64,000 bases of DNA, taken from sequence record MZ170040.1, one strand, 5' to 3'. Source of the stretch: Escherichia phage vB_EcoM_FJ1. The position numbers were made by a program, and so were the translations under genes. Of the stretch, positions 8,922-21,205 are shown one piece after another; position 1 is the first letter of the stretch; each line of letters begins with the position of its first letter. The notes below the pieces were generated by a model, which did no database searches, had not been told where the DNA came from, and saw only the letters and a program-made list of their open reading frames with translations.

Positions 8922-9152
8922 TTATTTCTCAACCAATGATTGAATATAATCATGCAGGTCTTTAGATGCTTTACCCCACTTATTTTGGTATTCATTTTTA
9001 AGATTAGCCCGAGATTGAGCTAATAAAACATCATTAGTTGGAGGTAAAGATTCTAACCGTTGAATCTGGCGTCCATAAATCATTGCAGCCATCTCGGATT
9101 CATAAATCAATCCTTTGAGATGTTCAAATTGATGCCATGAAATCATTTGCAT
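8922..9152 (-). CDS. hypothetical protein
   Basis: 76-aa ORF. Confidence 0.5.
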   Translation of the reverse strand: MQMISWHQFEHLKGLIYESEMAAMIYGRQIQRLESLPPTNDVLLAQSRANLKNEYQNKWGKASKDLHDYIQSLVEK

Positions 9153-9442
9153 TTATCCTCTTTTAGCTCTTGACGATAATAACATATCATAGTTTTTTGG
9201 TCATGTACATATCGTTTTACATCATTAAGCCAAATACGAAATTCCTGGGAATCTTCAAATGGCATACCGACCCAAGCTTTACCATCAATAACTTTAACTT
9301 GCCAAGATAGTTTAGCTTCATCATATGACTTTATTTGTACAGGCCAATTAGGATGAACTGTTTCTTTCTTTACTTCTAGAGGCTTTGTCGAACAACCAAC
9401 TAGAAGACCAATAGATAATATTACTGCTGATAGTTTAATCAT
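9143..9442 (-). CDS. putative lipoprotein
   Basis: 99 aa; N-terminal signal MIKLSAVILSIGLLVGCSTKP with lipobox LVGC. Confidence 0.55.
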   Translation of the reverse strand: MIKLSAVILSIGLLVGCSTKPLEVKKETVHPNWPVQIKSYDEAKLSWQVKVIDGKAWVGMPFEDSQEFRIWLNDVKRYVHDQKTMICYYRQELKEDKCK

Positions 9443-9792
9443 TTAGAAAGGTCCTGGATGTCTTCTGCGAACTTGTTGAAGGAGTTGTTGATTTGTTTTT
9501 CAACCAATCCTGGCTTATGAGCCACCACATCCGCCTTCTTTGCGTCTTTGCGCAGTTTTTCATTTTCACGCTCAATAGCAGCAATTGCCTCACGATTTTT
9601 ATTATTCATCGCATCAATATAATTATACTGAATTCGCAAATTATTTAATGCTAAGGCGTTTTCATTGGCCGTTTTTGTAATTTCTACAACAGACGTTTCT
9701 AATCTTTCAATTTTATTTTTTAAAATTAAAGAAGTTCCGCCCAATGCAATTACAATTAATAGCAAGCCTGCTGTCGTATTACTTAATTGCAT
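9439..9792 (-). CDS. membrane-anchored coiled-coil protein
   Basis: 117 aa; hydrophobic N-terminal segment GLLLIVIALGGTSLIL then charged helical region. Confidence 0.5.
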   Translation of the reverse strand: MQLSNTTAGLLLIVIALGGTSLILKNKIERLETSVVEITKTANENALALNNLRIQYNYIDAMNNKNREAIAAIERENEKLRKDAKKADVVAHKPGLVEKQINNSFNKFAEDIQDLSK

Positions 9793-10289
9793 AAAGTTTT
9801 AATAACCTCTATAATATCGTCTTGAGAAAGACCGTTAATTAAAATATGATGTTCAGCCGGAGATTTAGAAATTTTAAAGCATGCCTCAACATCTTCTGCC
9901 ATATCCGATGCGCTACGATTTGGATTACTAATCCCAAGGCGGTGTTTTCCCGTCAAAGGATTAACGATGATATAGCATTTACAACTATTGATATGAACAT
10001 TAGGCTGAGTCTGATTAATGAACACTTCACAATCATACTTAGCGAGTTGATTTTCTAAAAAGACTTTCATCTCTTCAACCGCATCAGGAAGCATATCACG
10101 GGCTTGCTCAAGACGACGATTTCGATATTCTTTAATGGTCGTTTTCCGCTTGACTTGCTTAGCTAAATCTTTCTTAAGATCAGTGATATATCCAACTCGA
10201 CGATTTCCTTTGAATACCGAAATCCCATCTGTAGTATCACCGTATGCTTCAACGACCATTTCAGTAGTAATAAGTTGTAAATCCATCAT
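9783..10289 (-). CDS. alc: Alc, inhibitor of host transcription on cytosine-containing DNA
   Basis: MDLQLITTEMVVEAYGDTTDG...; length (167-168 aa) and position between pseT and rnlA as in T4. Confidence 0.75.
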   Translation of the reverse strand: MMDLQLITTEMVVEAYGDTTDGISVFKGNRRVGYITDLKKDLAKQVKRKTTIKEYRNRRLEQARDMLPDAVEEMKVFLENQLAKYDCEVFINQTQPNVHINSCKCYIIVNPLTGKHRLGISNPNRSASDMAEDVEACFKISKSPAEHHILINGLSQDDIIEVIKTLCN

Positions 10290-10350
10290 AAAGTCCTCAT
10301 GTTATGTCAGTAAGACTACTATAACACAACACGAGGGACTTGTAAACAGC

Positions 10351-11938
<1,588 letters not shown>

Positions 11939-11965
11939 AATAAAATGGGCCTTGCGGCCCACTCC

Positions 11966-13144
11966 TTAAAAATATTTTTTAAAACTCATCATAACTTTAT
12001 CATCAACGTCATTATCAATCTGTGCAACAAGGTAAGATGACAGTTCTACTTCTTGTGGCGCGGATTGAACATTATCAGAATTAAGATATTCACGAATCCA
12101 AGGATATGGATGTTTAACCGGAGCATCGGTAATTGGGCATGGAAGACCACACTGTTTCATACGAGATACAGTTAAGTAATCAATAAAGCTCCACATGCTA
12201 TTTGTATTTAATCCAGGAACATCGCCATCTTTAAATAAATGAACTGCCCAATCTTTTTCTTGGCGGTTAACTTCCATGAAAATATCAACTGCTTCTTGTT
12301 CACACTCTTGAGCAATTTTAACCCATTCATCACCATCAGTACCGGATTGAAGCTGACGAATAATATATTGAGTGCCTTTAAGGTGAAGCTGCTCATCACG
12401 TGCAATGAACTTCATAATCTTGGCATTACCTTCCATGATTTCCATGTTCTTATGGAAGTTAAAGGTACATGCGAAAGATACATAAAAACGAATAGCTTCT
12501 AAGGCATTAATAACGTGCAAACAGAGGTAAAGAGATTTCATTAAAGCACGTTTAGCTTCGGCTTCTTGTTTAATAGCTCGGTTTAAACGAAAGACAGCAT
12601 CAGGAGATTCTTTAGCTAGTTCTACAAATTCTTTAGCATTTTCCCATTCACGGGTTTTAATCAGAACATCATCATAATAACGCCCAATGGATTCAGCACG
12701 TTTCATAATAGCTTCATCTAATACAATCTCATCAAATACCTTCGATGGATCAGTATAAAGATTTCGCATGATATGTGTATATGAACGGCTGTGAATAGTT
12801 TCACTAAAAGTCCACGTAGCAACCCATGTATCAAGGCTTGGGTCTGAAATTAATGACATAAGTACAGCAGACGGCGCACGACCCTGAATGCTATCCAAAA
12901 GTGATTGATACTTCAAGTTGTTAGTAAAAATATTCTGCTGATACTGAGGAAGCTTATTAAACTGTGCAGCATCCATCATTAAGTTTACTTCTTCGGGACG
13001 CCAGAAAAATGATAAGGACTTCTCTGTAAGTTCTTCAAATACTCGATGCCGTTGAATATCATAACGCGCAATACCAAGACCTGAACCAAAAAACATAGGT
13101 TCTTTTAAAACATCAACTGGATTTGTATTAAAAACTGTGCTCAT
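11966..13144 (-). CDS. nrdB: ribonucleotide reductase small subunit (continuous ORF, no intron)
   Basis: 392-aa uninterrupted ORF with di-iron radical R2-type sequence; adjacent to nrdA. Confidence 0.9.
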   Translation of the reverse strand: MSTVFNTNPVDVLKEPMFFGSGLGIARYDIQRHRVFEELTEKSLSFFWRPEEVNLMMDAAQFNKLPQYQQNIFTNNLKYQSLLDSIQGRAPSAVLMSLISDPSLDTWVATWTFSETIHSRSYTHIMRNLYTDPSKVFDEIVLDEAIMKRAESIGRYYDDVLIKTREWENAKEFVELAKESPDAVFRLNRAIKQEAEAKRALMKSLYLCLHVINALEAIRFYVSFACTFNFHKNMEIMEGNAKIMKFIARDEQLHLKGTQYIIRQLQSGTDGDEWVKIAQECEQEAVDIFMEVNRQEKDWAVHLFKDGDVPGLNTNSMWSFIDYLTVSRMKQCGLPCPITDAPVKHPYPWIREYLNSDNVQSAPQEVELSSYLVAQIDNDVDDKVMMSFKKYF

Positions 13145-13195
13145 AAATTTTCCGCTTAGTTAATAGTTGGTGACTCGTCCATGAGTCAAATTATA

Positions 13196-15460
13196 TCATA
13201 ATTTACAGGATGAACAATCTTCAGCTTTTGGAGTTTCTATTTCATAATCATCAGTACCAGAACCATCGCGGGTATTATGATAATAGAAGTTTTTAATGCC
13301 ATAATACCATCCGTATAGCATGTCATCAATCATTATTGACATTGGAACCTTTCCTTTTGGAAAAATCTGCGGGTCATAATATGTATTCGCCGAAGCTGAT
13401 TGACATACCCATTTCAGCATAATAGCTACCTGCGTAAGATAAGGTTTATTACCTTTCTTAGCTAATTTCCATGTATAGTCGTAAAGGTCTATGTTATGCT
13501 CAATATTGGGCACGACTTGATTAAAGGAGCCCTCTTTTGATTCTTTAACAGAGACTGGTCCACGTGGAGGCTCGATACCGTTTGTACTGTTAGAAACTTG
13601 GGAAGATGACTCACATGGCATAAGTGCTGATAATGTGCTATTACGGATGCCAAAGAGCTTAAGGTCTTCCCGCAGCGCCGACCAGTCACAAACGTATTTT
13701 GGAGCTGCGATTTGGTCAATCTTTTTATTGTACCAGTCGATAGGTAATTCGCCTCGAGACCAACGAGTGTCTGAATAATATTCGCAAGGTCCTTTTTCTT
13801 TGGCGAGCTTAATGGATGCTTTAATGAGTCCATACTGTAATCTCTCAAATAGTTCATGTGTTAAATCGTTAGCATCTTCATAAGAAGCAAAGTTACTTGC
13901 CAGCCAAGCTGCATAGTTAGTAACACCTACACCAAGGTTACGACGCTTTTTAGCTTTTTCTGCTTCAGGAACTGGATATCCTTGGTAATCCAACAGATTA
14001 TCAAGAGCGCGAACTTGAACTTCTGCTAATTCATTAATTTTATCTTGGTCTTGCCAATCGAAGTTATCCAGCACAAATGCAGATAACGTGCACAATCCAA
14101 TTTCAGCATCAGGGCTATTCACATCATTTGTTGGAATAGCAATTTCACAGCACAAGTTACTCTGACGAATAGGTGCCTTTTCACGAATAAACGGAGTATA
14201 GTTATTCGTATTATCAATGAACTGCACATAAATCCTTGCTGTTCCTGAACGTTCAGTCATGAGCAATTCAAATAGTTCACGGGCTTTAATACGCTTTTTA
14301 CGAATATTAGGGTCTTTTTCTGCTGCTTCGTATAATTCACGGAAACGGTCTTGATCTTTAAAATAAGAATAATAAAGCTCGCCACCCATTTCATGTGGAC
14401 TGAACAAAGTAATGTAATCGTTCTTTCCGAATCGTTCCATCATTAGATCATTCAGCTGAACACCATAATCCATGTGACGAATGCGGTTTTCTTCTACGCC
14501 TTTGTTATTTTTCAAAACGAGAAGATTTTCAACTTCCAAATGCCAAATAGGATAATAAGCAGTAGCAGCGCCGCCACGAATTCCACCCTGTGAGCATGAT
14601 TTAACAGCAGTCTGAAAATGTTTCCAAAAAGGAATAACACCAGTATGGCGTACTTCACCCATGCCAATCTTAGAACCTTCAGCACGAATCATACCAACGT
14701 TAATACCAATTCCAGCGCGTTTAGAGATATATTCAACAATTGAAGCGGAAGCCTTATTGATAGACTTTAATGAATCACCTGCCTCAATAACAACACATGA
14801 ACTGAACTGTCGAGTCGGAGTACGACAACCAGCCATAATAGGAGTTGGCAATGAAATCTGTCGGGTTGATACTGCTTCATAAAAACGGATAACATGTTTT
14901 AATCTATCAACAGGTTCATCTTGATGCAATGCCATTCCAATAGCCATAAATGCAAACTGTGGAGTTTCATAAATTTGACCAGTGGTTTTATCTTTAACTA
15001 GATATTTTTCTTTTAATTGCATCGCCCCGGAATAAGTAAATTCCATATCCCGTTCGTGCTTAATTTTTGATTCTAAAAATGTAATTTCTTCTGCTGAATA
15101 TTTTGACAATAATTCAGGGTCATATTTACCTTCATTTACACAATAAGAAATATGGTCAATAAATGAACGTGGTTCATACTGCCCATAAACATGCTTACGA
15201 AGAGCAAACATTAAACAGCGTGCAGCTACATATTGATAATCAGGTTCTTCAACCGAAATAGAATTCGCAGCGGCCTTAATGACAATAGTCTGAATATCAT
15301 CAGTTGTCATTCCATCACGGAGATAAGATTTAATATTTTCATATAATTCATAAGGATCTACTGATGTTCCTTCAGCTGCCCAAGATAAAACTTTAATAAT
15401 TTTTTGCGGGTCAAAGCTCTGAGAAACACCACTACTTTTGATAACATTAATTAATTGCAT
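13196..15460 (-). CDS. nrdA: ribonucleotide reductase large subunit
   Basis: 754 aa, class Ia RNR alpha with ATP-cone N-terminus and C-terminal CSSCKL tail. Confidence 0.9.
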   Translation of the reverse strand: MQLINVIKSSGVSQSFDPQKIIKVLSWAAEGTSVDPYELYENIKSYLRDGMTTDDIQTIVIKAAANSISVEEPDYQYVAARCLMFALRKHVYGQYEPRSFIDHISYCVNEGKYDPELLSKYSAEEITFLESKIKHERDMEFTYSGAMQLKEKYLVKDKTTGQIYETPQFAFMAIGMALHQDEPVDRLKHVIRFYEAVSTRQISLPTPIMAGCRTPTRQFSSCVVIEAGDSLKSINKASASIVEYISKRAGIGINVGMIRAEGSKIGMGEVRHTGVIPFWKHFQTAVKSCSQGGIRGGAATAYYPIWHLEVENLLVLKNNKGVEENRIRHMDYGVQLNDLMMERFGKNDYITLFSPHEMGGELYYSYFKDQDRFRELYEAAEKDPNIRKKRIKARELFELLMTERSGTARIYVQFIDNTNNYTPFIREKAPIRQSNLCCEIAIPTNDVNSPDAEIGLCTLSAFVLDNFDWQDQDKINELAEVQVRALDNLLDYQGYPVPEAEKAKKRRNLGVGVTNYAAWLASNFASYEDANDLTHELFERLQYGLIKASIKLAKEKGPCEYYSDTRWSRGELPIDWYNKKIDQIAAPKYVCDWSALREDLKLFGIRNSTLSALMPCESSSQVSNSTNGIEPPRGPVSVKESKEGSFNQVVPNIEHNIDLYDYTWKLAKKGNKPYLTQVAIMLKWVCQSASANTYYDPQIFPKGKVPMSIMIDDMLYGWYYGIKNFYYHNTRDGSGTDDYEIETPKAEDCSSCKL

Positions 15461-15777
15461 AAGTCCTCAACTTGAAAATCGTCTTTAAACAATCGGTTAA
15501 CTATATGAGCTATTATATCACCATGACACGGCTTTGGTTTACATGTGCATCCTAGCCTCATTCCACGTAAAGGCTCTAAATGTGCTTTAGTTATTTCTCC
15601 GGATTTAATTCGACGTATAAAATCTTTTTTGAATAATTCAATGGCAGCCTCCCGGCTGCCAGCATCTTTACCGACGTAATTTCCCCAAAATGTACCGCGG
15701 TGAATATTAACATCAAAGTCGGATTTGTATTTATTCACTACCCGGCATAGACGGCCCACGCTGGAATAATTCGTCAT
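15451..15777 (-). CDS. hypothetical protein with CxC..CHGD motif
   Basis: 108 aa; [19 protein letters not shown] motif. Confidence 0.55.
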
Positions 15778-15994
15778 ATTGTTTTTCCGTTAATACAGTA
15801 ATATCATAGTAACAATCGGAAGAAGTTTTAACTGTGGAAATTTTATTATCAAAATACTCACGAGTCATTTTATGAGTATAGTATTTTTTACCATAAATGG
15901 TAATAGGCTGTTCTGGTCCTGGAACTTCTAACTCGCTTGGGTTAGGAAGTGTAAAAAGAACAACGCCAGAAGTATCTTTAAATCGTAAAATCAT
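15731..15994 (-). CDS. hypothetical protein
   Basis: 87-aa ORF overlapping td start. Confidence 0.5.
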
Positions 15995-16851
15995 ATTGCC
16001 ATTTTCCCTTTAATTGCTGGATGCGATTCATAATTTTCAAGGATAAAATCTTTCGGTTTCATGTATTCAGTTAACCAGTAAAGCTGTGTTTCGGTGTCAC
16101 AATTTCCAAACTCTATAGGCCAATCAATTTTAAGTTCACACAGTTCTTTAGGCTCACGACGTAAAATTTCTTTACATTGCTCAGTATGATTCATATAGAT
16201 GTGAGTATTACCACCAGAAAATATCAAATCTCCTGGGATAAGATTACACATCTTAGCCACAATATGCGTCAAGGCAGCGTACGAGGCAATGTTGAATGGC
16301 AAGCCCAAGAAAACATCTACACTTCTTTGGTACCATTGTAAATCAAGATAACCATTACGCACATTAAACTGATAGAACATATGACAGGGCGGTAATGCCA
16401 TTTGATTGATTTCAGCTGGATTCCATGCTGAAACGATTTGACGTCGATCAGTTGGTAATTTTTTAATACGATCAATAGTTTCAACTAATTGATCCACACC
16501 ACCGAAATCACGCCATTGTTTACCGTATATAGGACCAAGTTCACCACTATGATATCCTAGGTCTTTAGCCTGGTTTTCATAGTTATCGTCCCAAATAGTT
16601 TTACCTTGAATAAGACTGCCATGAGTGCGAAGACGTAAATCATTAACATTGGTAGAACCGGAAATAAACCATAGAAGCTCAGCAATGCATGCATTCCAGG
16701 CGAGCTTCTTAGTTGTTACTGCAGGAAAACCTTTGGTTAAATCCCAACGCAATTTAGTACCGAACAAAGCAATTGTTCCTGTGCCCGTTCGGTCATCGGT
16801 TTCATAGCCATTTTCAAAAATGTCTTTAATTAAATCTTGGTATTGTTTCAT
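15991..16851 (-). CDS. td: thymidylate synthase (continuous ORF, no intron)
   Basis: 286 aa; TS signature incl. active-site region PCHMFYQF; uninterrupted reading frame. Confidence 0.9.
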
Positions 16852-16896
16852 TTAGTACCTTATATAAATTATAATACATTTTATGAAGCTGAATAA

Positions 16897-17256
16897 TCAA
16901 TACGGTTTAGCATCAAATTTTCTTTCAATTTCAGGCGTGAAATATAATTCTTTACCACGTTTGGAAAAGCGACCAATAATATGATAATTATTCTTATCAA
17001 ACGTAATATTACCAATATCCATAGCTTTCAACCAAATATCGATATTTCTATCCAGCTTTATGTCAAAATTCCAATACGGAGAACTATTACCGAAAATACT
17101 GCAAGCGGATTCAGTGAAACAGCTACTATAAATCTTGTCTTTAGGAACTACTAATTGATAGACACCTTTAATAAACTGAGGACCTTGCCATTTTGGCTGT
17201 TTCGCGTCTTTTTCTAATAGAATAGGGTAATAATTAAAATTCATATTTTCCGCCAT
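16897..17256 (-). CDS. hypothetical protein inserted between frd and td
   Basis: 119-aa ORF with its own start/stop and short flanking spacers. Confidence 0.55.
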   Translation of the reverse strand: MAENMNFNYYPILLEKDAKQPKWQGPQFIKGVYQLVVPKDKIYSSCFTESACSIFGNSSPYWNFDIKLDRNIDIWLKAMDIGNITFDKNNYHIIGRFSKRGKELYFTPEIERKFDAKPY

Positions 17257-17264
17257 GCGTTATT

Positions 17265-18091
<827 letters not shown>

Positions 18092-18102
18092 ATTATCTCC
18101 TA

Positions 18103-18435
18103 TTAAAAAGGATCAGGAACATATCCGCTAGCTTTAATCATTTTAATTAACGTTAACATTCCTTTGTTAACTGCTCGTGAGATTTCATCAAAAACTTCAT
18201 CACTAAAAAGTTCTAACACGCCCTTCTGAACTTTTAATTTACAGCCAACAATTTCGTCATCGCCTATAGTAAATTCGTTTCCGCCAATTCCACCGAAAAA
18301 CTTAATTACACCAGTTAACTGTCTTCCACGAGAATATGGGTCGTGTGATAAAGTAATATGAGTCACCCCGGGTACAGTTTTAAATTGGCAGCGAATATTT
18401 ACTTGTGAAATTCCAGTTACATGAATGTCAGACAT
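18103..18435 (-). CDS. hypothetical protein
   Basis: 110-aa ORF. Confidence 0.5.
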   Translation of the reverse strand: MSDIHVTGISQVNIRCQFKTVPGVTHITLSHDPYSRGRQLTGVIKFFGGIGGNEFTIGDDEIVGCKLKVQKGVLELFSDEVFDEISRAVNKGMLTLIKMIKASGYVPDPF

Positions 18436-18445
18436 AATATTTTCC

Positions 18446-18688
18446 TCAAATAGACTTTTTCACAATTTTCCAATCAGCTTTAAACTGATCGACGTCAGAG
18501 TGATAAATCCAAAATCCTGCGCTTTCACCGTCTTCATAAAGCGGACACCCATCACATTCATCTTCCCATCCCATGCCACGTAAAAGGTGTTCAGCTTTTT
18601 CAACAAGTTCAGAATCTTTACCGATGATATTAAAATACCATTTACCTCTAACTTCTGAATCTTTGATGCTCTGGCGTTGTAATCTCAT
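18446..18688 (-). CDS. hypothetical protein
   Basis: 80-aa ORF. Confidence 0.5.
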   Translation of the reverse strand: MRLQRQSIKDSEVRGKWYFNIIGKDSELVEKAEHLLRGMGWEDECDGCPLYEDGESAGFWIYHSDVDQFKADWKIVKKSI

Positions 18689-18826
18689 TTTATTCTCCTT
18701 AGCAAGCTTTAATCAAAAGATATAAACAGACCAACATAACTGCTGCCATAATATAAGGTGCGAACATTTTCTTTTCTCCATTAGTTTTGATAGGGTAATA
18801 GTATCACACTACTACTCTTCTGTAAA

Positions 18827-19192
18827 CTACTTTTTGAAAGTTTTTCGCAAAAGTTCAATGATTTCATCTACATTGTTTTCGTCAACAATGCAGTGAATTT
18901 TTGTTACGCCAGAAACCTTGTCTTTGACTTCATCTTCTTCAGAAGTCGGTTCTTTATACTCACGAAAACAATGAAATTCATCTTCGCAGACGTTGAAGTA
19001 AAAATGCTTTCCATTGGCGCATTCTACGTGTTTTACTACTTTAAATCCATCAGCAAAGAAAACTTCTTTAACTTCAAACCATCCGCCATTTTCTTGAATA
19101 GCTTTAACTATTAATGAATTAGAACGCGGGCGATAATTAATAAATGTATCAATAAGTCTTGGAACAAGTTCGTACTTTTTATCAATATACAT
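18827..19192 (-). CDS. hypothetical protein
   Basis: 121-aa ORF preceded by early promoter-like GTTTAC/TACTAT at ~18790..18825. Confidence 0.5.
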   Translation of the reverse strand: MYIDKKYELVPRLIDTFINYRPRSNSLIVKAIQENGGWFEVKEVFFADGFKVVKHVECANGKHFYFNVCEDEFHCFREYKEPTSEEDEVKDKVSGVTKIHCIVDENNVDEIIELLRKTFKK

Positions 19193-19236
19193 TATGTTTT
19201 CCTCATTTTAATAGGGGCTTGATAGCCCCTCGATAA

Positions 19237-19488
19237 TTACTGTTCAATCAATCCCATGTAAAATTCTGCATCTTCAGCATCCATACCATCACAGTATTCA
19301 TTAGCCATAAATCGTTCAAGAACTTCTAAAGGACCTTCAATAACAATAGAAAAATTGCAATAATTGGGATCATCATGAATACTTGTGATACTAAGTTCAG
19401 GATAACGATTACGAATAATTTCTTCAATATATTCAAAATCAACGATGTCAATATCAACTTTAGCCATATTGTTTTCCTCTTTAATCAT
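19237..19488 (-). CDS. hypothetical acidic protein
   Basis: 83-aa ORF downstream of gene 32 terminator/promoter cassette. Confidence 0.5.
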
Positions 19489-19504
19489 CAGCAGTATTGC
19501 CGAT

Positions 19505-19542
19505 AGTTGTATAGTACCATAAAGCTTTATGCTTGTAAACCG
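19505..19542 (-). promoter_or_regulatory. T4 early-type promoter (-35 GTTTAC, 18-nt spacer, -10 TACTAT)
   Basis: minus strand GTTTAC 19535..19540, TACTAT 19511..19516. Confidence 0.55.
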
Positions 19543-19561
19543 TTTTGTGAAAAAATTTTTG

Positions 19562-19590
19562 AAATAAAAAAGGGGACCTCTAGGGTCCCC
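19562..19590 (-). terminator. rho-independent terminator after gene 32
   Basis: GGGGACC-loop-GGTCCCC hairpin followed by T-run on minus strand. Confidence 0.65.
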
Positions 19591-19612
19591 AATTAATTAG
19601 TAATATAATCTA

Positions 19613-20518
19613 TTAAAGGTCATTCAAAAGGTCATCCAGGTCCGTGTCATCAGCACTAGATGAACTGCCAGAGCTTGAGCTCATAAAATCATCTTCAGTT
19701 TTTGTATTGAAGTCATCAACATTGAATGCATCCAAATCATCAGCAACTTTATCAGCTTTCTTAGCAGCAGTTGCTGCGGCACCACCCATAGCAGCAGTTC
19801 CCATAACTTGACTGAACTTAGTGCTCAGTTCTTCAAACGATTTGAATTTATCTTTAGAAGTCATTTCAGAAAGGTCAACCATTTGTTCGAACAGTTCTTT
19901 CTGGAAAGATTCATCGTCAATATTTGGAATCGCAGATTGATTCAGGAATTTAGATTCGTCGTAGTTACTAAATCCAGAAACCTGTTTAACTTTCAGTACA
20001 AAGTTAGCACCTTCCCACGGGCAAGTTACATCAACTGGAGTTTCACCCATTTCTACATCAACCGCAATCATTGCATTGATTTTATCCCAGATTTTCTTAC
20101 CGAAACGGTATTTAAATACTTTACCTTCGTTTTCTGGAGCAGCTGGGTCTTTTACTACAAGAATGTTAGCCCAGTAAGAAGTTTTACGTTTAACAAGACT
20201 GTACTCTTTATTGTCAGTGTTGTACAGATCATTTTTACTGATGTACTGACATACTGGGCAAGAATCGTAATCACCATGGGTAGATGAACATGTTTCAATA
20301 TACCATTTACCATTTTTCTTGAAACCGTGATTTACAAGAATTGCGAATGGTGCTTGTTCATCATTTTTAGACGGAAGAAAACGAATTACTGCTTGACCGT
20401 TACCCGCATTATCGAGTTTCAGTTTCCACTCGCCTTTATCTTCAGAAGAAAAACCTTTATTGCCATTCAGTTTAGCCATTTGTGCAGCAAGTTCAGCAGT
20501 AGATTTACGTTTAAACAT
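19613..20518 (-). CDS. 32: gp32 single-stranded DNA-binding protein
   Basis: 301 aa, [49 protein letters not shown]..., acidic C-terminal tail; matches T4 gp32. Confidence 0.95.
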
Positions 20519-20572
20519 TTTATTTCCTTTTTAATTTAATTTAATTAACAGTTGGTGCTATGACACTTTACC

Positions 20573-21205
20573 TCATAGCTGGCATAATTCGCAATACTCT
20601 GGGTCTTCGAGAGGTATCCAACCTGAGTTGAAATACTTTACCATCGATTTAGCAGTTGTATCAGTTATATTTATATTACCTTTAACTCTTCGCCATCCAG
20701 GAGTTTTACCGTACAGATTAGAGGATAATAATAACACATAATTCTCGTAAGCAATATGAGATAATTTCCAAGACTCTATATTAGCTCGTGATGTTTTCCA
20801 AGGTCTAAAATCGTCACGGTTCATATAATTAGCCAATCTCATATGCTCTCTAACTTCCGGGTCTTTGGCTGGATGAGTTTCACCACTCACACCAAATCCA
20901 CCACCAGCATATACCAGATTAAAATAGTCTGGATTATCTCTGGCATTTACTTCAAGTTGGTATTTTCGTTCTGCTTCAATAACATCCAAGTCATCATCAA
21001 TTTGAATTATTTTAACGCTCGGTTTTTGAAGCATTAGCGCATTCAAAAATCTTTTTTGTTTACATGAGCTCCAGTATTCCTTTCCGGAAGAGTCATATAT
21101 TATTCCGTTCTCAAATGAGCAATTTAATTTACTACCGATATAGTAGTATGGCGGAGTCTTATTTTTGACACGGTCTTCAAATGTAAACCAATATACTATA
21201 TTCAT
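20573..21205 (-). CDS. segG: freestanding GIY-YIG-like homing endonuclease (segG-like position between 32 and 59)
   Basis: 210 aa; N-terminal NIVYWFTF...PPYYYIGSKLN resembles GIY-YIG; located between genes 32 and 59. Confidence 0.55.
   Translation of the reverse strand: MNIVYWFTFEDRVKNKTPPYYYIGSKLNCSFENGIIYDSSGKEYWSSCKQKRFLNALMLQKPSVKIIQIDDDLDVIEAERKYQLEVNARDNPDYFNLVYAGGGFGVSGETHPAKDPEVREHMRLANYMNRDDFRPWKTSRANIESWKLSHIAYENYVLLLSSNLYGKTPGWRRVKGNINITDTTAKSMVKYFNSGWIPLEDPEYCELCQL

Follow-up and report, generated by a model that had tools for sequence, protein, structure and literature searches.

A PHROG 1928 gene usually occupies the frd-td interval of T-even-type phages, and T4 carries a rare empty allele

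The open reading frame (ORF) of 119 aa located between frd and td in Escherichia phage vB_EcoM_FJ1 (record MZ170040.1, of which a stretch of 64,000 nt, hereafter the window, was analysed) is, on comparative grounds, a genuine phage gene under strong purifying selection. The interval in which it lies is a cassette slot with three alleles in Tequatrovirus-like records: a gene of the PHROG 1928 family, to which our ORF belongs, an unrelated gene of PHROG 9550, or nothing. The PHROG 1928 gene is the majority state, T2 included, and T4 is a rare empty allele. The original prediction had presented the ORF as an extra gene inserted at this place, and this reading is largely reversed: T4 is the exception, and the window is ordinary. 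We are confident of the identity of the gene and of its evolutionary description. The fuller explanation that we prefer, in which a genuine accessory protein of ~115 aa usually resides between frd and td, would have been lost in T4 and would have a binding role, appears probable to us rather than secure.

The elements of the region are the following:

17265..17846, minus strand: frd, dihydrofolate reductase, 193 aa, 97% nucleotide identity to T4 frd
17263..17271, minus strand: exact direct repeat TAAATGAAA (9 nt), left copy, covering the frd stop codon
16897..17256, minus strand: gene of the PHROG 1928 / RB32ORF229c family, 119 aa from the ATG at 17256, as given by the ORF list
16852..16896, minus strand: ORF-td spacer, 45 nt, from the ORF stop to the td ATG
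16846..16854, minus strand: right copy of the direct repeat TAAATGAAA, covering the td start codon
15991..16851, minus strand: td, thymidylate synthase, 286 aa, uninterrupted, a divergent allele

The frd stop codon occupies 17265-17267, and the start homologous to that of T4 is the ATG at 17846 (MIKLVF); the frame of the ORF list runs to 17873, beginning upstream of this conserved start. An ORF of 119 aa with its own spacers on either side had been predicted between the two genes and is indeed present (16897..17256, minus strand), with 8 nt between the frd stop and its first ATG, and 45 nt between its own stop and td. Its translation opens with MAENMNFNYYPILLEKDAKQPKWQGPQFIKGVYQLVVPK. The conserved core of the protein is 115 aa long and begins at the ATG at 17244 (MNFNYY), the start chosen by most depositors. 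The upstream ATG, at 17256 in the window, is replaced by GTG in T2 and Lutter, and a metagenomic homologue (66% identical) uses this upstream codon as its start (MVKNV-NFNYY). The start, and with it the length of the product (115 or 119 aa), is therefore ambiguous.

The ORF matches PHROG 1928 with E=3e-35 (3.1e-35), residues 8-115 aligning to positions 2-125 of the 126 of the profile, and a profile built from homologues recovers the protein at E=1.5e-42. By tblastn, it was found in 589 phage records, and the region of the ORF is 95-99% identical across several hundred T-even-type records. Pairwise comparisons of six alleles (Nei-Gojobori) gave dN/dS values of 0.01-0.09. A chance ORF is ruled out by this conservation and by these values. 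In phage T2, the gene carries the depositors' note RB32ORF229c. The RB32ORF229c of T2, RB32, RB3, RB14, RB18, PP01, AR1, Shfl2 and others is the same gene, also located between frd and td, with 95-99% amino-acid identity and no substantive difference from ours; the window merely adds an in-frame upstream ATG, giving 119 instead of the usual 115 aa. Every name attached to the 90% cluster of the ORF is 'hypothetical protein'. A family search detected no paralogue elsewhere in the window, nor in the frd regions of T4 and RB69, and we found no paper on this gene in the literature searched under several names.

In T4 (NC_000866), td begins at 145112 and frd stops at 145109; the two genes overlap by 4 nt (ATGA), with no ORF between them. 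The direct adjacency stated in the original prediction is correct, and the homologous ORF that was looked for at this position of the T4 reference is absent. In the window, frd ends as ...GTATA TAAATGAAA TAACGC ATG..., and td starts as ...GGTAC TAAATGAAA CAATACC...; the T4 junction reads ...GTATA TAAATGAAA CAATACC..., with a single copy of the repeat at the frd/td overlap. In other words, the two flanks of the window, left and right, meet in T4 at one copy of the repeat, and T4 equals the window minus exactly the 417 nt of ORF and spacer that run from repeat copy to repeat copy. The direct repeats exist because the sequence following the frd stop and td both begin with a stop codon and ATGAA. 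A mini-frame of two codons, ATGAAATAA (ATG AAA TAA, 17260-17268, minus strand), opens on the ATG that overlaps the frd TGA; it is in frame with the ORF, is kept in T2 and Lutter, and has the form ATG AAA TAG in Shf125875; it may be either a reinitiation device or what is left of a td-like start.

The phage collection was split with four probes, the counts being database records, duplicate and near-clonal entries included. A 701-nt probe spanning the ORF matched 536 records, ~354 of which cover at least 80% of it. The exact T4-type junction, detected with a 43-nt probe centred on the T4 overlap and too short for seeding on either half alone, is found in 32 records, mostly T4 isolates together with RB55, RB59, HY03, SG1 and a few others. 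An ORF of 68 aa, first met in intron-bearing records lacking the 119-aa ORF, occupies the slot in 142-147 phage records. These three states (354 + 142 + 32) account for ~528 of the 536 probe-matching records. The two-allele view, according to which every record without the ORF would be T4-like, proved wrong: only 32 records have the T4 junction, and most of the others have the 68-aa ORF. The latter (MSNKLKVKDVP..., PHROG 9550) is unrelated to PHROG 1928, overlaps both frd and td, and has no Pfam match; in phage fFiEco06 it lies at 1042-1248 of locus L010, and it is also present in L011, L012 and L006 (4670-4879). What stands of the predicted accessory gene at the junction is that the slot is polymorphic (PHROG 1928, PHROG 9550 or empty), but an occupied slot is not an unusual insertion, with ~354 records carrying our ORF versus 32 with the empty junction.

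The T4 td gene is split by an intron carrying I-TevI (NC_000866). The td of the window aligns to both T4 exons (83% nucleotide identity in exon 1, 75% in exon 2), and the ~1-kb intron is missing; no Rfam match to a group I intron was detected in 9000-21000 at E<=1. As a single frame of 286 aa, it does not belong with the td genes that harbour the group I intron and I-TevI, as had been predicted. Two further parts of the prediction were not borne out. The site known for attracting mobile DNA is that of I-TevI and the intron, ~550 nt inside td, rather than the junction. Nor does the ORF take the place of the intron. A probe taken from the T4 td intron (its first 399 nt, including the I-TevI start) matched 254 records, 201 of which cover at least 80% of it, and 79 records, for example RB10 and EC128, fully cover a chimeric probe with both ORF and intron. 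This means that the two are independent, and their mutual exclusion is refuted, even though the intron is relatively enriched on the alleles without the ORF. In two records, OK148441 (MLP2) and OP978391 (HP3.2), the ORF accompanies only the first ~100 nt of the intron probe, which suggests that their td intron has a different ORF or none.

Three annotated phages, Klebsiella phage KP17 (Jiaodavirus), Erwinia phage Cronus (Roskildevirus) and Enterobacter phage IME523 (Kanagawavirus), have homologues with 30-45% identity at the same place, between frd and td. The two closest homologues outside the T-even phages (63-66% identity) are on metagenomic contigs, again between frd and td. Altogether, a family member occupies this position in all 19 other non-redundant loci (14 IMG/VR loci found with the family profile, 3 annotated phages and 2 metagenomic contigs), which span several genera of Tevenvirinae. 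It is present as a tandem pair in 13 of the 19, and in three loci the 68-aa gene lies just before td; in some genera this gene follows two PHROG 1928 paralogues. The second, B-type paralogue has the same key residues and an insert of ~20 residues. An exhaustive HMMER search of 1.84 billion representatives returned only ~20 clusters at 50% identity, all of 95-120 aa; two long matches, P0021 and P0023, were repetitive and eukaryotic-looking, and were rejected. Judging from this search, PHROG 1928 is a small family, confined to T4-like phages.

The presence or absence of the gene also varies in a second genus. RB69 (Mosigvirus) has an empty overlap like that of T4, while the Mosigviruses SF and Shf125875 have the ORF, with 93% amino-acid identity to ours. 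The frd and td genes of SF and RB69 share 96-97% identity, but the ORF is in SF only, so that the indel is polymorphic within both genera. RB69 corresponds to SF minus the DNA lying between two copies of the short repeat TAAATGAA; written as TAAATGAA(A), the repeat describes the T4-type and the RB69-type empty junctions alike. In Mosigvirus, the state with the ORF looks like the minority one (14 records in the 90-95% identity band of the tblastn matches). Between the window and SF, dS is 2.74 in frd, 0.56 in the ORF and 1.25 in td; dN is 0.37, 0.036 and 0.083, respectively. Being far below that of the flanks, the dS of the ORF indicates a more recent common ancestor than theirs, and thus a lateral exchange of the cassette between Tequatrovirus and Mosigvirus. 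By the same measures, the constraint on the ORF is close to that on thymidylate synthase.

What the protein does was approached through its residues and a structural model. In an alignment of 23 family members, six residues do not vary (Q20, W23, G31, G95, K99 and G101), three (Y33, F97 and F106) are shared by at least 90% of the sequences, and R96 is shared by most. These residues form the motifs Q-x-K-W, (H)G-x-Y and G-R-F-x-K-x-G, all present in the ORF protein, and B-type paralogues keep Y33 together with the six invariant residues. Among the 23 members, no catalytic pattern of Cys, His or acidic residues is conserved. The pI of the family ranges from 6.8 to 9.4, and aromatic residues make up 10-20% of the sequence. 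Pfam (E<=10), NCBIfam and PADLOC scans of the ORF protein gave no match, a Pfam scan of the 23 members gave only scattered single weak matches, none to a nuclease family, PDB sequence and profile searches returned nothing meaningful, and neither the protein nor its relatives matched a nucleic-acid-binding family. An initial AlphaFold2 run with 4 sequences only (pLDDT 59) was discarded for one with an alignment of 18 sequences, which reached a pLDDT of 81 and a pTM of 0.76. The modelled strands are 10-16, 31-38, 42-44, 52-54 and 66-68, followed by a helix (72-80) and by strands 84-86, 90-100 and 103-108. This predicted order resembles that of an OB-type barrel. The predicted order of strands with a single helix, and the size of ~100 aa, are similar to those of OB-fold domains (RPA, SSB, S1, cold-shock, HIN), and the ORF protein is basic and aromatic-rich.

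The barrel model, the composition and the lack of a catalytic pattern speak for a binding protein rather than an enzyme. We picture a small OB-like beta-barrel, mildly basic and rich in aromatic residues, on which the invariant residues of the three motifs would make up the binding surface. Its ligand could be single-stranded nucleic acid, or a partner within the DHFR/TS (dNTP-synthesis) machinery. We put forward such a binding protein, made together with DHFR and TS, as a tentative proposal; binding of single-stranded DNA or RNA is hinted at by the pI and the aromatic content of the protein. The fixed position of the gene could also reflect the general synteny of T4-like phages rather than a functional link with DHFR and TS.

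How the gene came to differ between the window and T4 can be read in two directions, and the repeats by themselves give none. An ancestrally T4-like, overlapping junction may have received the gene recently, which would make it 'extra' in this lineage. The same overlap junction occurs in T4 and in RB69, which belong to two genera; the left junction of the window, ATGAAA followed by a stop codon, reproduces the first two codons of td; and the ORF of Mosigvirus looks like a minority allele acquired laterally, for which a gain is at least as likely as a loss. Against a recent insertion, occupied junctions outnumber those of the T4 type by ~496 to 32, one to three genes fill the slot in every other genus examined, and the 5′ extension of the ORF is homologous to that of a metagenomic relative, in which it overlaps frd. 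Given this occupancy and this homology, an occupied slot is the parsimonious ancestral state; since occupancy prevails in every genus examined, the T4 state is best read as a loss, and we regard a recent insertion as distinctly unlikely. T4 would have lost the cassette, or never regained it, through recombination at the microhomology of the repeats. A selfish mobile gene lodged between conserved genes, such as a free-standing homing endonuclease, would also produce an indel polymorphism of this kind, and like the seg, mob and hef homing genes of T4-type phages, the ORF lies between conserved genes, varies by presence or absence, and has its own promoter-like spacer. Its synonymous divergence is below that of the flanks, and MZ501050 and its sister records call it a 'putative homing endonuclease', the basis of which is not given. 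Unlike seg, mob and hef, however, the ORF is constrained, fixed in position and duplicated in tandem across genera, and it has no nuclease or DNA-binding module: neither GIY-YIG, nor HNH, nor any other was detected in its protein or in the 23 members, among which no conserved pattern of His, Cys, Asp or Glu exists. The family profile compared with T4 I-TevI, MobE and I-TevIII gave a best E of 6.7, and the predicted beta-barrel is neither the alpha/beta GIY-YIG fold nor the beta-beta-alpha-metal one. Homing endonuclease genes are sporadic and prone to decay; the ORF is under a constraint like that of thymidylate synthase. We therefore consider a homing gene highly improbable, and the hint of mobile DNA in the original prediction receives no support from the Pfam, family-profile and 23-member scans. 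The BASEL records concerned (MZ501050, MZ501052, MZ501065-67 and MZ501089) bear this label with no note or supporting domain, and it looks like an annotation error able to propagate.

The gene may, on the other hand, serve the phage against its host, as a small early protein that binds and inhibits a host protein, for instance an enzyme of defence or one depleting the nucleotide pool. It would then be kept or lost according to the hosts met, and the frd-td slot would be only historical. Such a role fits the patchiness within genera and the dispensability in T4 and RB69, the alternative alleles found in the slot, the combination of lateral cassette exchange with strong purifying selection, and a small protein devoid of enzyme signature. 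It fits less well with the anchoring of the gene between frd and td, seen in all 19 loci across genera and often in tandem, a pattern unlike that of most rapidly relocating counter-defence genes. Neither PADLOC nor any annotated family gave a match, and no experimental or literature link was found in the literature searched. We hold this anti-defence or host-takeover function to be unlikely, though less so than a recent insertion. The dispensability itself is presumed from the lack of the gene in T4 and RB69. A bolder version of the binding role that we favour is that PHROG 1928 supplies a dedicated third partner to the DHFR-TS pair, as a small OB-like adaptor or regulator forming a heterodimer of tandem paralogues in most genera; this seems to us a long shot. 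If true, it would constitute a non-covalent DHFR-TS link, comparable in function to the linker in bifunctional DHFR-TS enzymes, or a coupling to DNA or RNA, and it would have gone unnoticed for 40 years, the gene having been deleted in the model phage T4.

The gene would be co-transcribed with the early/middle frd-td unit of nucleotide metabolism. The ORF-td spacer (16852..16896) contains a MotA-box-like AGCTTCA (16884-16890), a TATAAT (16868-16873) and a ribosome-binding site, AAGG (16858-16861). A stretch of ~30 nt within this spacer, TCAGCTTCATAAAATGTATTATAATTTAT, which includes the MotA-box-like GCTTCA and the TATAAT, is present in the Tequatrovirus alleles and missing from the Mosigvirus version. 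The depositors of phage Lutter annotated a promoter in this spacer, as a prediction only. The promoter-like element has AGCTT where the MotA-box consensus has TGCTT, and a sigma-70 promoter scan of the region performed at chance level, no better than on shuffled sequences. In the 45-nt Tequatrovirus spacer, the predicted element would serve td.

Hundreds of T-even-type genomes, T2 and RB32 among them, already list the gene as a hypothetical protein. The results that correct earlier descriptions are that the T4 reference represents a rare empty allele, that the homing label is unsupported, and that the gene is independent of the td intron. They concern a family with no recognisable fold relative, constrained at the level of thymidylate synthase, whose place between DHFR and TS is fixed across Tevenvirinae and which is often duplicated there; it was never studied because T4 does not have it. 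The PHROG 1928 gene is a reasonable target for functional study in T2.

The region differs from other phages at further places. Along 15991-17846, frd is 97% T4-like and td 83%/75% in its two exons, which places a mosaic breakpoint at or near the junction; the td of the window is also strongly unlike the alleles of T2 and phage 107 (dS >1). In the I-TevI target region (~16290-16340), the intronless td retains GATGTTTTCTTGGG at the intron insertion site; upstream of this site, the window reads CCAAAGAAGTG and T4 TCAACGCTCAG, and the CNNNG cleavage motif is CAAAG, not CAACG. On the other side of the ORF, an 81-aa ORF (17846-18091, minus strand) overlaps the start of frd; it is 99% identical to RB32ORF231c of T2, is not in the frd regions of T4 and RB69, and has no Pfam match. 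A 110-aa ORF (18103-18435, minus strand) matches DUF7247 (PF23905, E=9e-44). It was not found in the T4, T2 and RB69 loci, is located upstream of frd in the metagenomic loci L006 and L007, and is a second point at which the frd.1-frd interval departs from that of T4. Finally, nrdA (13196-15460, minus strand) is separated by 51 nt from the next large frame (11966-13144, 392 aa, minus strand), which we take as nrdB from the annotations of matching phages. This nrdA-nrdB region of the window (11966-15460) is unlike that of T4, as it has no mobE, no nrdB.1 and no nrdB intron.
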